NCBI GenBank assembly: GCA_036405135.1
Contig: DASWYF010000025.1
Location: 17,665 to 81,664, forward strand
DNA: 64,000 bases
DNA from: Verrucomicrobiia bacterium
Lineage (GTDB): Bacteria > Verrucomicrobiota > Verrucomicrobiia > Limisphaerales > JAEYXS01
Direction: 5' to 3'
Every line of letters starts with the position of its first letter. The first letter of the stretch is position 1. Shown here one piece after another: positions 1,570 to 42,510 of this stretch. The notes beneath the pieces were generated by a model that saw only the letters and a list, made by a program, of their open reading frames with translations, had not been told where the DNA came from and ran no database searches. Made by a program: the position numbers and the translations under genes.

Positions 1570-1744
1570 GGGCCGCATGGATATAGGGAAACGCCCCGTT
1601 TGGCAATCCGTTTGCCGCAAGAAAACGCGTTCCTTGCCACCATCCAAATTTTGCTCCATTCCCATCTCCTCACGCCCTCCTTCCAGCGTCATCACTGTCC
1701 CTTGCTCCGGATGCATAACTCATCCTTCATGGTCCCTAATCTAA

Positions 1745-1844
1745 AACAGTCAGTAGGACATTGGCTGTCCATGTCCCTTTTTTTGAAAAACATTTCAAAG
1801 CAGCATAACCCGCTGCTAATCAGAACTTTAAAGCCAAAACATCC
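1745..1844 (-). repeat. Copy C of a conserved ~100-140-nt upstream module (core palindrome GGACATTGGCTGTCC at 1756-1770), with no small ORF attached
   Basis: In gene orientation it reads GGATGTTTTGGCTTTAAAG...ATGTTTTTCAAAAAAAGGGACATGGACAGCCAATGTCCTAC, which aligns with 30149-30285 (-) and 41811-41952 (+). It lies about 175 nt upstream of the start of the coiled-coil gene. The ATG inside the palindrome is followed by a stop after 3 codons here. Confidence 0.75.
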
Positions 1845-3748: not shown

Positions 3749-4087
3749 ATGGAAAATCAAAACCGTCGTACCGCCCTGAAAACCGTGGCCCTCGCCGCTG
3801 GCGCTCTCCTCTCCACCGAAGCGCTCGCCATCGAAGCCAAACCCAATTATCCTCGTTCCACTCCTGGCCGTTGGCTCTTTTCCGGTAAACCTTGCGCCAT
3901 CTTCCAGCAAGGCCCCATCCTGCTCATCGTCAACGAAACCGGGACACTCGCGACCGGCCAATTCACCAACCAGGACACCTTCAAGATCATCAAAGGCGAT
4001 GGCTGGGGCATCGGCATGACCGGCCAGCTCATCGAAAAAGGTAAACGCATCAAATGGTCCGATGGTGCTTATTGGATCCAGGCCTGA
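3749..4087 (+). CDS. Small exported protein with a twin-arginine-like signal
   Basis: The internal ATG of track ORF 3686-4087 gives MENQNRRTALKTVALAAGALLSTEALA..., an RR motif followed by a hydrophobic h-region. The upstream 21 codons overlap repeat DNA. Confidence 0.6.
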   Translation: MENQNRRTALKTVALAAGALLSTEALAIEAKPNYPRSTPGRWLFSGKPCAIFQQGPILLIVNETGTLATGQFTNQDTFKIIKGDGWGIGMTGQLIEKGKRIKWSDGAYWIQA

Positions 4088-26770: not shown

Positions 26771-29764
26771 TCAGTTCCCTTTCAGAAAACCGATCAAGTC
26801 CGCCAGCTCCTGCTTCGTCATCGTCTTCTCCAGTTCCTGCGGCATGAGCGACAGGCTCGTGGATGCCATCTTCGCGATATTCGCCCTCAAAATCGTGTCC
26901 TCCTGGCCCAAGGCCCGCTTCAACGTCACGCTCGATGCCGTCTCCGATGCCAGCAATCCCGTGAGGCTTTCGCCATCTTTCGTCTCCACTTCGTAACTGA
27001 TGTAGCCCGGATAAATCTCGAACTCGGGCACCAAGATGTGCAGGAGCAGCACTTCCGCCGTCTGGTTCTTCACACCCGTAAGATCCGGCCCCACATTCGC
27101 GCCATCGCTACCGAGCTTGTGACACGACGCACACGCTTTCTTGAACATCTCATGGCCGTTCTTAGCGTCCGACTTCAGCGCCAAGACCGATTTGTATTCC
27201 TCATACACCTTCATGCGATCTCCGCCGCCTCCGCCTTGGAACAGCACTTCCGCGCGCGTGCGGATCTTCTCATCCTTATGCTTCGTCAATTGCGTCCGTC
27301 GTGCAGGGGTCAGCGACCATACCTGCACATGTCCCGCCTCGACCGCATCCAGCAACGCCGGCAGGAAACGCACCTGTGACATCGCCGTGCTGATCACGGC
27401 CTCACGCACCGGCGGCGAATACGCGCGCCAACGTTCACGGCCCAGCAACGTCTCGCCCACCTTCACCTCGTTCATCACACCCAGCGAACGGATCGCCGCG
27501 ATCTGCAATTCTTTCGCCTGCTTCGGATCAACCAGGCTCAGCAAAATATCTCCCGCCTGTGCGTAATCCGCCTGTGCCAGCAATCCGATGGCCGCGAGGC
27601 GCCGGGCATCACCTGCTTCCACATTCTGCACCGCCTTCAAGGCGCGTTCGAAAAGTGCCTTCACCACGCCAGTGGCTTCAGCGGAATACGCCGTTTCCAT
27701 CGCCACCAAATTCAACACGGGCGAACTTTCCTTCCCCTTTACCTTGCCGCGCAAGCCCTCCGCCACGCCGCTCAGAAATGCCAGCGGCCAGTCCGGCTCC
27801 GTCTCTGCGTTCACCAGCGTCAGCAGGTAGATCATTTTCTCCGGCGGCTGGCTCGCTGCCAGTATCTGCCCCATCGACTGCATGAGCACGGGATTCACCG
27901 GCGTACCGCGATTCCCCTCCTCCACCAGGCCTTTGAACAATTCATCCGCCTGAGCACCGATGGATGTCAGCACAGCGGCACGTGTCCACTTGTCCTCGCC
28001 GTCACGCAACGCGATGCGCAACAGAGGTGCGATGCTCCGCGAATCCTTTCCTTCCCCGAGAGCCAGCGCACATTGGAACCGCACCCGCGCATCCCGGTCC
28101 TCCGCCGAGCGGCTGATCACCTCCACCAGGAATTGCGAATCCGTATAACTGCGTTCCGCGATGGCCAAACCCATCTCCCGGATGTCCGCCGAGGAATTCG
28201 CCAGCAGCCCGCGCATGAAATTTTCATCCCGCGGCCGCGTGGCAAAAGAAGCCGAAACCGCCGCCGCCGCGCCGTAATCATTTCCCCGTGCGCGTGACAA
28301 CCGCTGCATCTCCGTGCGGTTCATCCCGTCCGGGTTCTCGATCAGGCGCCGCCGCGCCACTTCTCGCACCCAGCCGTTCGTGGCCATCAGCTTGCGCATG
28401 GCCTCATCGGCACTCAACTTTGCCAGGTTTGGCAGCCGTTTCTCCGCCAATTCCTTTGCCGGGATCTCCGCGCCCACCACGCGATAGATACGGCCCATGT
28501 CTTTGCCGCTCTCGAAATCTGCCGTCTTGCGGATGTTCTCCGGCAGATACTGCGGGTGATCCACCACCCGGCGATACATGTCGCAGATATACAGCGCGCC
28601 CTCCGGCCCCGTCGTCGCATACACCGGGCGGAACCAGCTATCCGCCGTCGCCAGAAAATCGCTCTTCTCATCCGCCGGTTCCGAACGGAACGAAGCCCCG
28701 TTGAGCAGGAGCACCTGCCGCTGCACCAGGTTCTGCGCCGGCTCACACACGAAGACATCACCCACATGTTTCGGTGTCAGCGCACTGCCGTAAAATATAT
28801 GACTGCCGCACGCCGAGGTGAATGACCCCGCATGCGGCGCGCTCATCAAGCTGGGCATGAATGACGCCGTCGTGCCATCCGCGCTCAACGGATGTACCTT
28901 GCCCGCATCACCCGAAGGCGCGACATCCTGCACCATCTCGGAAAAAGCATAATGCGGATTCCGCTTCAGATGCCGCGGCTCCAGCACGATGTGTTGCAAC
29001 GGATTGCGATTCGAGGTGGTGAACCTCCGTCCAAACGCATCGAACGTCATCCCGTATTGGCCCGTGCCGCCGAGCACTTCGAATTCAAACGTGCGCGGAT
29101 TGAAGCGCGAATCATTCTTCGTGAACTTCACCGCCGCCATCTTCCGATTCTTCGGCGACGTGATCTCTCCCCCCGTCAACCCGCTCGTCAGATAGATCCA
29201 GCCATCCGGCCCAAGCGTCGGATGACTCACGCGCAACTGCGTCGTCTGGTTCGTGCCGAACCCCGTCAACCACACCTCCCGCACATCCGCTTTGCCATCG
29301 CCATTCGTGTCTTTGAAGTAAAGCACATCCGGCGCGCACGTCACGATCCAGCCACCCATCCACCGCTGCAAACCGTTCGGATACGTCAGCCCATCCGCGA
29401 ACACCGTGCGCTTCTCGTAGTAACCATCGCCATCCACATCCTCCAGTTGCGCCAAGACACCCACCGGCGGCTTCCCCTCGCCCGGTCCCGTGGGATACCC
29501 GCGATTCTCCGCCACCAGCATCTTCCCCGATTCATCCCACGCCACCGCCACCGGACTCGCGATCTGCGGTTCCGCCGCCGCCAGTTCCAGCCGAAGCCCG
29601 TCCTCCAGCTTGAACCGCTTCACCGCCTCCTTCGCTGGCACCGCGACATCTGCCGCACACAGGGACACCACACCCGCCAGCCACAACATCGCCATGGCCC
29701 CGGTCAACCCGCTCCGTGTCCAACCTGTGAAATTCATGCGCATAATATCAACCTGTGCTGCCAC
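26771..29764 (-). CDS. PVC-type heme-binding CxxCH protein (membrane-bound-dehydrogenase-like N-domain, HEAT repeats, C-terminal cytochrome c domain)
   Basis: The N-terminus reads FKLEDGLRLELAAAEPQIASPVAVAWDESGKMLVAENRGYP. The C-terminus reads GHEMFKKACASCHKLGSDGANVGPDLTGV...SLMPQELEKTMTKQELADLIGFLKGN. The exact start is uncertain: ATGs at 29764, 29743 and 29737 are all possible. Confidence 0.85.
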   Translation of the reverse strand: MAAQVDIMRMNFTGWTRSGLTGAMAMLWLAGVVSLCAADVAVPAKEAVKRFKLEDGLRLELAAAEPQIASPVAVAWDESGKMLVAENRGYPTGPGEGKPPVGVLAQLEDVDGDGYYEKRTVFADGLTYPNGLQRWMGGWIVTCAPDVLYFKDTNGDGKADVREVWLTGFGTNQTTQLRVSHPTLGPDGWIYLTSGLTGGEITSPKNRKMAAVKFTKNDSRFNPRTFEFEVLGGTGQYGMTFDAFGRRFTTSNRNPLQHIVLEPRHLKRNPHYAFSEMVQDVAPSGDAGKVHPLSADGTTASFMPSLMSAPHAGSFTSACGSHIFYGSALTPKHVGDVFVCEPAQNLVQRQVLLLNGASFRSEPADEKSDFLATADSWFRPVYATTGPEGALYICDMYRRVVDHPQYLPENIRKTADFESGKDMGRIYRVVGAEIPAKELAEKRLPNLAKLSADEAMRKLMATNGWVREVARRRLIENPDGMNRTEMQRLSRARGNDYGAAAAVSASFATRPRDENFMRGLLANSSADIREMGLAIAERSYTDSQFLVEVISRSAEDRDARVRFQCALALGEGKDSRSIAPLLRIALRDGEDKWTRAAVLTSIGAQADELFKGLVEEGNRGTPVNPVLMQSMGQILAASQPPEKMIYLLTLVNAETEPDWPLAFLSGVAEGLRGKVKGKESSPVLNLVAMETAYSAEATGVVKALFERALKAVQNVEAGDARRLAAIGLLAQADYAQAGDILLSLVDPKQAKELQIAAIRSLGVMNEVKVGETLLGRERWRAYSPPVREAVISTAMSQVRFLPALLDAVEAGHVQVWSLTPARRTQLTKHKDEKIRTRAEVLFQGGGGGDRMKVYEEYKSVLALKSDAKNGHEMFKKACASCHKLGSDGANVGPDLTGVKNQTAEVLLLHILVPEFEIYPGYISYEVETKDGESLTGLLASETASSVTLKRALGQEDTILRANIAKMASTSLSLMPQELEKTMTKQELADLIGFLKGN

Positions 29765-29879: not shown

Positions 29880-29996
29880 TTCCTCCAATGTTCCATGTTC
29901 CCTTCCCCATTGGCCCGCCGGTGCCACCGGCCCCCGCTCGATGTTCAGAGTTCGATGCATAGGCCAACCGGTGCAACCGGTGTTCGATGTTTCCCC
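29880..29996 (+). repeat. Cluster of stutter-type elements, including a single-unit version of the GTTCGAT array element
   Basis: The units are ATGTTCCATGTTCCCTTCCCC, CCGGTGCCACCGG, GATGTTCAGAGTTCGATG and CCAACCGGTGCAACCGGTGTTCGATGTTTCCCC. The last has the same flanks as the 3361-3560 array but only about 1 repeat unit. Confidence 0.75.
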
Positions 29997-30148
29997 TCCT
30001 CATTCTTCATTCCCGCGGGACAAGCTTGCTCGACGGCCCTCCGCATCTGCCCAAACCACCAACTGGCCTGGCTGATCTTCCGATACCGGCGACTCACCGG
30101 CCTGCACCACGTTTCCAACTTCAACTCACTCTGTTCCGTCAGCTTCAT
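29945..30148 (-). CDS. Small Arg/Trp-rich protein, paralog A (67 aa from the MKLTEQ start)
   Basis: The sequence is MKLTEQSELKLETWCRPVSRRYRKISQASWWFGQMRRAVEQACP... Its 44-codon core differs from paralog B (41953-42141) by 14 synonymous and 4 non-synonymous codon changes, by my hand alignment. Confidence 0.7.
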   Translation of the reverse strand: MKLTEQSELKLETWCRPVSRRYRKISQASWWFGQMRRAVEQACPAGMKNEEGKHRTPVAPVGLCIEL

Positions 30149-30285
30149 ACTGAACCTTTCTTTTACTTTTCTGCGATCAGTATGTAGAGGGGGGTAGGAC
30201 ATTGGCTGTCCATGCCTCCCCTTTTCTGAAAATATTTTACCCCCCTAACAAACTCGAAATAAACAAGTTAAAACGAAAACCAACA
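30149..30285 (-). repeat. Copy A of the conserved upstream module (core palindrome GGACATTGGCTGTCC at 30197-30211)
   Basis: In gene orientation it reads ...CGTTTTAACTTG...GTTTGTTAGGGGGTAAAATATTTTCAGAAAAGGGGAGGCATGGACAGCCAATGTCCTACCCCCCTCT..., which aligns with 41811-41952 and 1745-1844. Confidence 0.8.
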
Positions 30286-30733: not shown

Positions 30734-32044
30734 GTGAAAAACTGGTTGGTCTCTCTCAAGCCGGCCCAGCTTCTCGTGCTGGGGTTTCTCTCCTACGTCC
30801 TCATCGGCACGCTGCTGCTCTGTCTGCCACCCGCGCAGGCGCAGCCTGTCGCGTGGCTGGACAATCTCTTCAACGTCGTCTCCGCCGTGTCCACCACCGG
30901 ACTCACGACCGTGAGCGTGAGTGACAGCTACACCTTCTGGGGTGAACTGGTGCTGCTCATCCTCTTCCAGCTCGGCGGCATTGGTTACATGACCGTCTCC
31001 TCCGCGCTCATCCTCTCGCGCGGCCAGACGCTCTCGCCCGTGCGCCTGAAGATTCTGCACGCGGAATTCTCCCTCCCCAAGGGCTTTGACCTCCCACTCT
31101 TCGTGCGCCAGGTGCTCGTCTTCACCCTTCTCATTGAGACGATCGGCACCGCGCTGCTTTACTTTGAATTCCGCGCGGCCGGCGTGGAGAACCCCTTCTG
31201 GTCCGCGCTCTTTCACTGCGTCTCCGCCTTTGCCACCGCCGGTTTCAGTTTGAACAACAACAGCCTCGAAGCCTTTGCCGGCAATACCACCGTGAACCTC
31301 ACCATCGGCGCGCTCTGCTATCTCGGCGCGATCGGTTTCATCGTCCTGCAAGATGCCTGGCTCGCCGCCACCCGCAAGCAGCACACCATCACCCTCACGT
31401 CGAAGCTCATCTTGCTCATGACCGCCGCCATCTGGCTCATCACCACGCCGCTCTTCTATTTTGCCGAGCCGTCCATCCAGTTGCTCCCGGCCAAGGAACG
31501 CTTCCTCGCCGCCGCCTTCCAGATCATGAGCGCGTCCACCACGGCGGGCTTCAACACCATCAGCATCGGCAATCTTTCCTCCGCTTCCCTGGTGCTGCTG
31601 TTCTTCGCCATGATCGTGGGTGCCTCGCCCAGCGGCACAGGCGGTGGTATCAAGACCACCAGTGTGTCCGCGCTCTACGCCATTCTCGCGTCCACCTTGC
31701 GCGGACATCGCCAAGTGCAGTTCTGGAAACACGCCGTGCCGCCCATCCGCCTGCGCACGGCCGCCGCTTCCACCACGCTTTATATCAGCCTGATGACCGG
31801 TGGCCTGTTCCTGCTTTGCCTGACGGAGAAGCACGGTTTCCTGCCCCTCTTCTTCGAGACCGTCTCCGCCTTCAGCACCGTGGGCCTCAGCATGGGCATC
31901 ACGGGTGATCTGACCGCTGGAGGCAAATGGATCCTCATCGCCCTCATGTTCATCGGCCGCGTGGGACCTCTCACACTCGGCTTCAGCCTGTTCCAGCGTG
32001 AGAATGAAGAAACCGGGACGGTGGAATCGGACGTGGCGGTGTGA
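30734..32044 (+). CDS. TrkH/KtrB-family potassium uptake membrane protein
   Basis: This 436-aa multi-pass protein reads ...LKPAQLLVLGFLSYVLIGTLLLCLP...SAVSTTGLTTV...SAFATAGFSL...MSASTTAGFNT...GASPSGTGGGIKTTS...SAFSTVGLSMGIT... Those are the four selectivity-filter-like repeats of the TrkH/KtrB family. It starts with GTG. No TrkA/KtrA gene is adjacent. Confidence 0.9.
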   Translation: MKNWLVSLKPAQLLVLGFLSYVLIGTLLLCLPPAQAQPVAWLDNLFNVVSAVSTTGLTTVSVSDSYTFWGELVLLILFQLGGIGYMTVSSALILSRGQTLSPVRLKILHAEFSLPKGFDLPLFVRQVLVFTLLIETIGTALLYFEFRAAGVENPFWSALFHCVSAFATAGFSLNNNSLEAFAGNTTVNLTIGALCYLGAIGFIVLQDAWLAATRKQHTITLTSKLILLMTAAIWLITTPLFYFAEPSIQLLPAKERFLAAAFQIMSASTTAGFNTISIGNLSSASLVLLFFAMIVGASPSGTGGGIKTTSVSALYAILASTLRGHRQVQFWKHAVPPIRLRTAAASTTLYISLMTGGLFLLCLTEKHGFLPLFFETVSAFSTVGLSMGITGDLTAGGKWILIALMFIGRVGPLTLGFSLFQRENEETGTVESDVAV

Positions 32045-41730: not shown

Positions 41731-41732
41731 TT

Positions 41733-41800
41733 TCAAGTGTTCAGTTTTCAGGGGGAGAAGACACGAATTTCACGGATTGGCACAAATTAGGGAGGGGAAT
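41733..41800. repeat. Stutter-type elements (TTTCA(A/G)(G)T family and CCGTGAAATTCGTG unit)
   Basis: The sequence is GTTTCAAGTGTTCAGTTTTCAGGGGGAGAAGACACGAATTTCACGGATTGGCACAAATTAGGGAGGGG. A related unit, GTTTCAAGTTTTCAGTGTTCAGAGGG, lies at 42153-42178. Confidence 0.6.
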
Positions 41801-41810
41801 TTCCGGGTTT

Positions 41811-41952
41811 GGATGGGTTTTTAACGCTTAAAGCATTCATTTCCAGATTGTTAGGATGGTTTTAAATATTTTCAGAAAAAGGGAGGCATGGACAGCCAAT
41901 GTCCTACCCCCCTCTGCATAGTGGACGCAGAAAGATAACAAAAAGGTTCATT
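41811..41952 (+). repeat. Copy B of the conserved upstream module (core palindrome GGACAGCCAATGTCC at 41890-41904)
   Basis: GGATGGGTTTTTAACGCTTAAAGC...GATTGTTAGGATGGTTTTAAATATTTTCAGAAAAAGGGAGGCATGGACAGCCAATGTCCTACCCCCCTCT... aligns with copies A and C. Confidence 0.8.
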
Positions 41953-42141
41953 ATGAAACTGACAGAACAGAGCGAGTTGAAGATGGAAACGGGATGTCGT
42001 CCGGCGAGTCGGCGGTATCGGAAGATCAGCCAGGCGAACTGGTGGTTTGGACAGATGCGCCGGGCGGTGGAGCAGGCTTGTCCGACGGAGGAGCCGGTGA
42101 AGGTGGCGCGGCAGAGGGTGTTGCCATTGGCGACGGAATGA
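41953..42141 (+). CDS. Small Arg/Trp-rich protein, paralog B (62 aa from the MKLTEQ start)
   Basis: The sequence is MKLTEQSELKMETGCRPASRRYRKISQANWWFGQMRRAVEQACP... See paralog A for the synonymous-biased divergence. Confidence 0.7.
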   Translation: MKLTEQSELKMETGCRPASRRYRKISQANWWFGQMRRAVEQACPTEEPVKVARQRVLPLATE

Positions 42142-42510
42142 GGAAAGGAAGGAGTTTCAAGTTTTCAGTGTTCAGAGGGACACGGAAAAGTTAGAGCCTC
42201 CTTACGTCGGCTGCTACGAGTTGGGTTCGAGGACGATTTTTTTATTTTGCGGAATGCCAAGGAGGAATGGCCCGCCCTCCGGCCAGTCGGTCAACCAATG
42301 ACAGGAACCGTCACTGGCCGGAGCTGGTTGTACCAGCGGCCTAACTAGAGAAAAAGAAGAGAGGAAATAGGCCACTGCAAGCGAGTGATAAGCAGATTAC
42401 AAAGGGGAAGCAAAAAGGGGTTAACAAAAGGAAGGAGAATGGGGTAAATTCAGCTTTGCTTACGTAACAGAAAGTGTTGAATAAGCGTCTCTATACCCAG
42501 TCTGATAAAC

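Follow-up and report, generated by a model that had tools for sequence, protein, structure and literature searches.

A conserved family of basic micro-protein genes with a palindrome-containing putative promoter in Verrucomicrobia

The window analyzed here is a 64,000-nucleotide stretch of a Verrucomicrobiia bacterium genome (GenBank assembly GCA_036405135.1, contig DASWYF010000025.1, positions 17,665 to 81,664 of the forward strand), and it carries two copies, A and B, of a small open reading frame (ORF) for an Arg- and Trp-rich micro-protein. The pair was first described in a reading of the letters made without database searches (hereafter, the sequence-only reading), whose coordinates and translations for both copies proved correct. 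A six-frame profile search of the window recovered no third copy of the ORF.

29945..30148, minus strand: micro-protein copy A, 67 codons plus stop; core codons 1-44 at 30017-30148; profile score 69.8 bits
41953..42141, plus strand: micro-protein copy B, 62 codons plus stop; core at 41953-42084

Across the 44-codon core, 26 codons are identical between A and B, 14 differ synonymously, and 4 differ non-synonymously, the same counts as in the sequence-only reading. The 21 base differences fall 4/2/15 at codon positions 1/2/3 (third-position excess, binomial P = 4e-4), and non-synonymous (dN) and synonymous (dS) divergence by the Nei-Gojobori method are 0.049 and 1.21, with dN/dS ~0.04; thus, the copies are old paralogues held together at the protein level. 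The 18 codons from an upstream in-frame ATG to the ATG of the shared MKL start bear 2 synonymous and 6 non-synonymous changes, again as first counted, with differences of 2/4/3 by codon position. Past codon 44 the copies cannot be aligned and the tails are unrelated, as originally described.

The same coding signal extends beyond the window. In a close clade of 21 sequences, the pooled ratio of non-synonymous to synonymous differences per site (pN/pS) was 0.21 for the proposed frame, whereas the two shifted frames gave 2.06 and 1.71, and pairwise differences by codon position were 703/699/2224; among 79 distinct distant loci, compared over the 23 codons around WWF, they were 20941/18252/36344. 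The frame is intact in >100 homologues of 30-90% identity. An even spread of substitutions over codon positions, or frameshifts and stops in further copies, had been named beforehand as speaking against a gene; because a third-position excess was found in both the close clade and the distant loci, that pattern does not apply here. The proposal of a translated core under purifying selection was borne out by the low pN/pS in one frame only, the third-position excess, and family-wide amino-acid conservation. Judged by these substitution patterns, copies A and B are real genes selected at the amino-acid level, in the proposed frame only, and the selection implies that the micro-protein ORF is probably translated.

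Homologs were recruited from several public collections. In total, 24 close homologues of 57-89 aa were obtained from a search of 5.8 billion proteins, all hypothetical and, wherever named, all Verrucomicrobial; MKLTEQSELKMETGCRPVSRRYRRISQANWWFGQMRRAVEQACP is common to all of them, and most also carry a ...RRVEQRVLPL tail. A scan with one genome per species yielded 18 loci in 7 Verrucomicrobial assemblies, with 1-4 copies each. Additionally, 137 further cluster representatives, nearly all of 47-130 aa, were recovered at E <= 1e-3 by a profile search of 1.84 billion representatives, 147 matches by a word-index search, and at least 222 confirmed loci by a metagenome scan. The family consensus reads M..EQ[ML]EL.[LF], a variable linker, RRQRR..RA.WWF.QMR..V[DE].A, and often DW.P.P..RPEQ..F, this last part, with its R-P-E-Q tail, being looser. 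Within the WWF.QM block, no variation is seen at W, F, and M, and the N-terminal MKLTEQSE/EQMELGL block is conserved as strongly as the WWF.QMR block, with conservation over the whole length.

The sequence-only reading did not recognize the family, and neither Pfam, NCBIfam, PDB, PHROGs, PADLOC, nor Rfam holds a match. Rfam gave no family match at gathering or E-value thresholds, a profile search of PDB sequences returned solely a designed repeat protein, 2.9 million viral contigs contained no relative, and no family was shared with PHROGs, where 1 of 91 members had a single marginal match. The literature yielded nothing specific on the family, the palindrome described below, or Verrucomicrobial small proteins. 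The exact 62-aa product of copy B is present in the public protein collection, and the product of copy A, from either start codon, is absent from a collection of 15 billion proteins. The family, large and unannotated, is confined to Verrucomicrobia (Limisphaerales/Pedosphaera-like genomes). The micro-protein was found to be a member of no described family, and no evidence for a wholly new mechanism was found.

AlphaFold runs on copy B and on a distant member each predicted one helix with a predicted local distance difference test (pLDDT) score of ~91-93 and low-confidence, unstructured ends. The predicted helix (residues 18-42 of copy B; 23-49 of the distant member) runs from the basic RRYRK/RRQRR segment through WWF.QMR..V and is amphipathic. 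Arg makes up 23% and Trp 9% of the core, and the median net charge is +6. No hydrophobic segment or domain fusion was found in family members, and neither a ribbon-helix-helix nor a helix-turn-helix fold was predicted, the models having one helix only and the family no Pfam or NCBIfam match. A heme-regulatory Cys-Pro motif was considered and rejected: of 135 members, 68 have a Cys at all and only 26 have CP, which lies in the linker.

The two ORFs share the following translation start signals.

30155..30159, minus strand: Shine-Dalgarno AAAGG of copy A, 6-7 nt before the ATG
41942..41946, plus strand: Shine-Dalgarno AAAGG of copy B, in a conserved block

The MKL ATG is invariant, with the AAAGG 6-7 nt upstream, and the block AAAGGTTCAyTATG is conserved across all close relatives. 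The upstream in-frame ATG of copy A, at 30202-30200, lies within the palindrome; in most relatives it is followed two codons later by TAG, so that the in-frame stretch before MKL opens only past a stop, and because this ATG lies 5' of the putative -10 element it would be outside the mRNA. For copy B, a gene caller picked the MKL start. By its invariance, the Shine-Dalgarno sequence, the closing TAG, the position of the upstream ATG, and the gene call, the MKL ATG is the start, in agreement with the sequence-only reading.

The predicted leader is 24 nt long and unstructured (fold z -0.9 for copy B, and -1.4). A helix that would hide the start codon, CATAGTGGAC...GTTCACTATG, with compensatory G>C/C>G changes in copy A, was dropped, its 5' half being the -10 hexamer in the anchored alignment. 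In one homologous locus (L002, ~3800-3990), the 5' leader of the micro-protein gene contains a 165-nt insertion with inverted ends (GACACGGTCTGAAAA ... TTTTCCAGACCGTCTC), and another (L018, ~2520-2560) has a 15-nt remnant at the same site; it looks like a miniature inverted-repeat transposable element (MITE). The palindrome-to-ATG distance is a multiple of 3 in 20 of 20 loci, which may be coincidence.

Upstream of each ORF lies a set of promoter-like features, defined in an alignment of 85 distinct loci anchored on the palindrome.

30222..30239, minus strand: A/T tract TAAAATATTTTCAGAAAA of copy A, in an UP-element-like position, ~-69 to -49
30187..30221, no strand assigned: palindrome of copy A, core GGACAGCCAATGTCC at 30197-30211, with G-rich and C-rich arms, ~-41 to -16 from the predicted start
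30179..30184, minus strand: putative -10 element CATACT of copy A, predicted transcription start near 30172
41860..41880, plus strand: A/T tract TTTTAAATATTTTCAGAAAAA of copy B, from the promoter alignment
41881..41914, no strand assigned: palindrome of copy B, core at 41890-41904, followed by a C tract
41917..41922, plus strand: putative -10 element CATAGT of copy B, predicted transcription start near 41929
1738..1770, minus strand: third promoter module, lacking the micro-protein ORF, with the identical palindrome GGACAGCCAATGTCC, the same A/T tract, the 12-nt spacer, and TAGATT

Exactly 12 nt past TGTCC stands the motif Y-A-n-n-n-T, with the A in 100% and the T in 98% of the 85 loci. A sigma-70-type -10 element is defined by this A and T, which fall here at -11 and -7 as in that class. 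About half of the loci also have a TG before the hexamer (extended -10). A conserved C tract occupies -23 to -16, a GC-rich discriminator follows the -10, and the sequence becomes A-rich from ~7 nt downstream. A consensus scan found no -35 hexamer at a usable distance (16-18 bp from the -10); TTGGACA sits 22-23 bp from it. The composite promoter pattern occurs 3 times in the window versus 0.18 expected. The third occurrence, though divergent from copies A and B right past the palindrome, keeps the spacing of the -10 element, with TAGATT; because it lacks the ORF, the promoter module is separable from it. Downstream of this third module, an ORF from 1569 on the minus strand encodes a secreted, coiled-coil-like protein with a signal peptide and without a Pfam family. 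The position-fixed conserved motif suggests that the micro-protein gene is transcribed from a dedicated promoter of its own.

Other promoter assignments were rejected. The A/T tract as a -10 element, with the hairpin at the 5' end of the RNA, had low information content; the GC of the -12 element of a sigma-54 promoter (TGGCAC-N5-TTGC) is TC in >95% of loci; and the A of CCCCAT in a sigma-32 promoter (CTTGAAA-N13-15-CCCCATnT) is absent. Farther upstream of copy B (41756-41790, plus strand), ~140-170 bp before the predicted start, stand three CRCGAATT units in direct orientation, recurring every ~10-11 bp (GACACGAATTTCACGGATTGGCACAAATTA). The repeats occur at equivalent positions in L004, L007, L008, L011, L012, L014, L016, L017, and L018, and, conserved across the window's clade, they look like a response-regulator-type binding array.

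The palindrome, TTGGACA-N5-TGTCCAA, lies at ~-41 to -23 from the predicted start. Its GGAC/GTCC bases are invariant and the flanking pairs co-vary (TT/AA, TA/TA, AT/AT, CT/AG); such symmetric co-variation would arise in a hairpin as well as in an operator bound by a dimer. Mismatches of the G-T and A-C types number 54 and 56, and because they are equally frequent they give no pointer to an RNA strand, so that this asymmetry was set aside as an uninformative discriminator of RNA from DNA. The exact motif GGACAGCNNNTGTCC occurs once per locus and always upstream of the ORF in 52 of the 52 loci having it (539 kb of loci), an association that is partly circular, the loci having been selected through the ORF; the window adds one ORF-less site. 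A divergent subgroup (MPNGQLQLGF..., e.g., L097) has another palindrome, GGCCAAC-N6-GTTGGCC, at the equivalent place. In a further subgroup (L032, L038, L049, L055, L061, L062), an extra TTGGACAAGTTG(TCC) site with near-zero half-site spacing lies ~100 nt upstream of the main palindrome.

Most likely, the palindrome lies outside the mRNA and is the DNA operator of a dimeric regulator; an operator is favored over an RNA hairpin because the -10 signature lies downstream of the palindrome. Alternatively, transcription may start in the A/T tract, with the palindrome as an RNA hairpin. The TetR-family repressor EilR of Enterobacter binds half-sites TTGGACA/TGTCCAA (PMC6127294). These are identical to the half-sites here, with a spacing of 2 nt in eilOc versus 5 nt in the Verrucomicrobial palindrome (PMC6127294), and, the organism being unrelated, the likeness shows only that a dimeric repressor, there of the TetR family, can read such half-sites. 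Because EilR binds the same half-sites, an ordinary dimeric regulator would be a sufficient explanation.

The sequence-only reading had called for the genes downstream of each copy to be recorded, and these are a DUF7133-HEAT-cytochrome c gene for copy A and a PSCyt/PSD gene followed by a DUF1552 gene for copy B. The genes in the window and the operon types in the window's clade are as follows.

26771..29764, minus strand: DUF7133-HEAT-cytochrome c gene (997 aa), downstream of copy A and co-directional with it; the pairing also occurs in L016
42511..46256, plus strand: PSCyt1-PSD3-PSD5-PSD4-PSCyt3-PSD2 gene (787 aa), then DUF1552/HXXSHH gene (449 aa), downstream of copy B
PSCyt1-PSD3-PSD5-PSD4-PSCyt3-PSD2, then DUF1552 where visible: copy B, L004, L005, L008, L009, L010, L014, L106
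PSCyt1-PSCyt2-LamG-PSD1: L002, L006, L007, L013
DUF7133-HEAT(-cytochrome c): copy A, L016
Wzy_C: L015, L017, L018
IclR: L012, L013
M16 peptidase: L011

In the window's clade, the downstream gene is co-directional with the ORF in all 19 loci with an identifiable neighbor, and in one genome (L002, L008, L016, L017) four copies precede four different operon types. This assembly, CALRJY02, is labelled 'Chitinophaga pinensis'; it carries the Verrucomicrobial cassette and PSCyt/PSD genes, and the label is probably wrong. The spacer from ORF to operon is 14-1056 nt (14-430 nt in all but L016, where it is ~1.06 kb) and consists of unrelated repeat modules; no intrinsic terminator beyond chance was found between the ORF and the downstream operon, nor any conserved structure in the spacer common to all copies. 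In the wider family (57 loci, by an ORF heuristic), the nearest downstream gene was convergent in 36 and co-directional in 21, and gene calls for L021 and L023 also placed convergent neighbors there, in agreement with the heuristic. These neighbors are housekeeping or diverse genes, the only recurrent one being a convergent Abhydrolase_2 gene (10/57 loci), which was rejected as a functional enrichment because it reflects lineage synteny only.

Two further elements lie between copy B and its operon. One is a conserved non-coding block (..AATTTCAGCTTTGC..GTTGAATAAG..CAGTCTGATAAACGTG) just upstream of the PSD-type gene (42421-42510, plus strand), also present in L005, L009, L010, and L014; in the window it contains TTAACA-18-TAAATT, a promoter-like site, and the operon may also own a promoter. 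The other is a two-hairpin motif between the ORF and the next gene, whether PSD-type or IclR, at ~42246-42323 (plus strand) in the window and at 4312-4444 in L003, 675-807 in L004, 4255-4386 in L012, and 4257-4389 in L013. Its first part is GCGGAnGCC...GGCCCGCC; after this, CTCCGGCCAGT/ACTGGCCGGAG pair as a stem of 12 bp that encloses a variable hairpin. L012 has compensatory changes at two base pairs, Rfam holds no match, and the motif might act as an atypical terminator or represent a structured RNA.

Taken together, a translated gene with its own promoter, an operator palindrome in that promoter, and a trans-acting, basic-helix regulatory micro-protein as product has, in our estimate, a little better than an even chance of being the right account of the cassette. 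From the 5' end, such a promoter would comprise the A/T tract, the palindrome in place of a -35 element, the C tract, the sigma-70-type -10, the GC-rich discriminator, and the 24-nt leader with its Shine-Dalgarno sequence, and a dimeric regulator would bind the palindrome as a DNA operator. The ~65-residue protein would be one long basic amphipathic helix with disordered ends, acting in trans through this helix, which would bind nucleic acid or RNA polymerase; its own palindrome is one possible site of action. In the window's clade, the cassette sits directly upstream of, and reads towards, operons for exported heme-c/PSD-type proteins, and these downstream operons are probably co-transcribed or co-expressed with the micro-protein from the same regulated promoter. 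Trans action is preferred because of the whole-length conservation, the stand-alone relatives, and the lack of a conserved RNA switch; the molecular action in trans is the weakest step of the proposal.

Several observations weigh against this account. The presence of 2-4 selected copies per genome, each before a particular operon, is more easily explained by a role in cis. The single predicted helix offers no fold-level tie to a known DNA- or RNA-binding family. The arms of the palindrome, 5-14 bp with compensatory changes, fit a structure as well as an operator, and if transcribed they would fold at -16 to -31 kcal/mol (copy A, -18.2 kcal/mol). The transcription start is deduced from a motif, and a start in the A/T tract would make the palindrome a 5' RNA hairpin. 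The palindrome is centered near -32, which is unusual for an activator site, yet the promoter lacks a -35 element. The homologous loci were retrieved by a protein pattern, which decayed or broken copies would escape, and transcription, translation, and binding are all deduced from sequence.

The main rival is that the ORF is a cis-acting regulatory leader peptide (upstream ORF) that sets expression of the downstream operon, perhaps by sequence-specific ribosome pausing at the invariant WWFGQMRRAVEQACP segment. We consider this unlikely, though much in the window's clade fits it: the ORF lies close upstream of and co-directional with the operon in 19 of 19 informative loci with no terminator between; several copies per genome are each tied to one operon type across genomes; and the peptide sequence, beyond the codons, is conserved as in arrest peptides. 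Additionally, the stop codon lies in the loop of a GC hairpin in L001, L007, and L017, and in L017 the next start codon follows 14 nt after the stop, which would allow translational coupling. However, homologues outside the clade stand alone with convergent neighbors; the whole peptide is conserved, including the N-terminus and not merely a C-terminal arrest motif; conservation is lowest in the spacer and at the 3' end of the ORF, with no conserved terminator/antiterminator or switch sequestering the Shine-Dalgarno sequence; no hydrophobic segment of the secretion-monitor type is present; and a promoter-like site precedes the PSD gene itself. A cis leader role in the window's clade could be compatible with an ancestral trans function.

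Regulatory leader and arrest peptides such as TnaC, SecM, SpeFL, and trpL are treated in two surveys (PMC7897499; PMC10987492), and a further paper presents peTrpL as a trans-acting leader peptide (PMC7298713). The likeness in the window's clade lies in a short co-directional ORF directly upstream of specific operons and in a conserved peptide with a Trp-Trp pair and a Pro ending the conserved block. Co-direction holds throughout the clade (19/19) but not in the wider family (21 co-directional versus 36 convergent); an RNA switch at the end of the ORF is lacking, the spacers being of 14-1056 nt with unrelated modules; conservation is not C-terminal only, the N-terminal block being conserved equally; and the downstream genes are neither secretion machinery nor amino-acid biosynthesis genes. 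As for attenuation leaders of the trp type, the Trp-Trp pair is present, but there is no terminator and the downstream genes are PSCyt/PSD or DUF7133 genes.

A second rival holds that the micro-protein itself binds TTGGACA-N5-TGTCCAA, the whole being a self-contained single-helix transcription-factor cassette that would autoregulate and co-regulate the attached operons. Within the 539 kb of loci the palindrome occurs only before this ORF family (52/52 loci), the GGAC/GTCC bases and the basic helix are both invariant, the divergent subgroup (e.g., L097) carries its different palindrome at the equivalent place, and, in the structural models, the amphipathic stretch after the basic region could dimerize. 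Nevertheless, we regard this as doubtful: the models show neither a ribbon-helix-helix nor a helix-turn-helix, nor any other known DNA-binding fold; a spacing of one helical turn between half-sites suits helix-turn-helix dimers; EilR binds the same half-sites (PMC6127294), so that an ordinary regulator is an equally good candidate; and the loci were chosen via the ORF, which makes the association partly circular. Equally tentative, and to our minds improbable, is the broader notion that the cassette is a self-contained regulatory unit in which a single-helix micro-protein recognizes the palindrome of its own promoter, or the RNA hairpin of that palindrome, and, with a copy of the cassette before each of several operons, coordinates a regulon of exported heme-c/PSD-type envelope proteins in Verrucomicrobia. 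If true, it would represent a minimal transcription factor or a nascent-peptide sensor of an undescribed kind.

Arginine-rich-motif peptides are exemplified by the N proteins of lambda and P22 and by HIV Rev and Tat. The micro-protein resembles them in its short basic Arg-rich helix with aromatic residues, in the disorder outside the helix, and in the stem-loop-capable sequence beside the gene, and the speculation in the sequence-only reading that it is of the lambda N type stands as a fair analogy for nucleic-acid binding, an Arg-rich helix being predicted (23% Arg; pLDDT ~91-93). Membership in the class failed in three of four respects: the hairpin lies upstream of the putative -10 and so, by motif, probably not in the nascent transcript as boxB does; viral contigs, PHROGs, and the terminator scan gave no phage context and no terminators; and a PDB profile search and Pfam gave no sequence homology. 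Moreover, there is no evident boxA of the nut type, and the genes are chromosomal and occur in multiple copies. A lambda-N/Rev-like peptide binding the RNA of a leader hairpin, for antitermination or translational autoregulation, is therefore very unlikely here: the aromatic- and Arg-rich core helix, the stable hairpin, with a loop of 5 nt, that the palindrome would form, and the compensatory changes and variable length of the outer stem would suit it, but the invariant -10 downstream probably puts the hairpin outside the transcript, the G-T and A-C counts (54 versus 56) give no sign of RNA-strand wobble tolerance, phage context and terminators to read through are lacking, and no PDB sequence matches the profile.

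That the region is non-coding, with an RNA or DNA element conserved and the open frame incidental, is extremely improbable: the absence of the copy A product from the public protein collection and the nucleotide-level conservation of the upstream block fit it, but a third-position excess and a pN/pS of 0.21 confined to one frame, a frame intact in >100 homologues (30-90% identity), the conserved start codon and Shine-Dalgarno sequence, and the lack of an Rfam match do not.

CspA paralogues and ribosome modulation factor (RMF) are multi-copy small stress proteins that bind nucleic acid or the ribosome. The micro-proteins resemble them in being basic and of ~55-70 aa, with several paralogues per genome and strong regulated promoters of their own with an A/T-rich upstream tract, but no homology was found (no Pfam cold-shock-domain or RMF match), and a single helix is predicted, not a beta-barrel. 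In kind, the micro-protein is a basic protein encoded by a small ORF with a regulated promoter, widespread in one poorly studied and largely uncultured lineage. Small proteins are systematically missed by annotation, the copy A product being a case, and here a family of >130 sequence clusters under purifying selection lacks a counterpart in Pfam, NCBIfam, Rfam, and PDB. The putative promoter is among the most sharply defined that we could derive from sequence alone, in a phylum with poorly known transcription signals. In one clade, the cassette marks conserved PSCyt/PSD/DUF1552 and DUF7133-cytochrome c operons, and a shared promoter and first cistron would offer an experimental handle on these enigmatic operons.

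The unrelated tails of copies A and B involve a GC-rich palindromic repeat that matches twice in the window, against 0 expected, and nowhere else in it.

29958-29980, minus strand: 23-nt GC-rich palindromic repeat CCGGTKGCACCGGCGGGCCAATG, inside ORF A
29908-29930, minus strand: second copy of the same repeat, after the copy A stop codon

The first repeat supplies the divergent C-terminal tail of copy A, with the stop 11 nt beyond, whereas copy B keeps the ancestral ...QRVLPL tail, with the C-terminal family motif R-x-Q-R-V-L-P-L. Because CCGGTKGCACCGGCGGGCCAATG lies in the copy A tail, the divergence past codon 44 is due to repeat insertion, not to the end of a shared functional domain. The unit, often preceded by GGGGAAACATCGAA, also occurs 3' of the ORF in L001, L002, L004, L007, L008, and L017, and inside the ORF in L017, L018, and P0021-P0024 (in frame in L017 and L018), where SRLHRRAYEC... 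stands in place of K-MET-GCRPVSRRY. It looks like a repetitive extragenic palindrome (REP)- or MITE-like unit associated with the cassette. Copy B lies between simple repeats of the GTTTCAAGTGTTCAGTTTTCAG type (41731-41752 and 42155-42176, plus strand), and similar runs adjoin the cassette in L001 and L003.

On the other side of copy A, a c-di-AMP riboswitch (RF00379; 30422-30587, plus strand; 43.3 bits against a gathering threshold of 38) precedes a TrkH-family cation transporter gene (30734-32044, plus strand). The pair is divergent from copy A and represents a classical arrangement, unrelated to the micro-protein.

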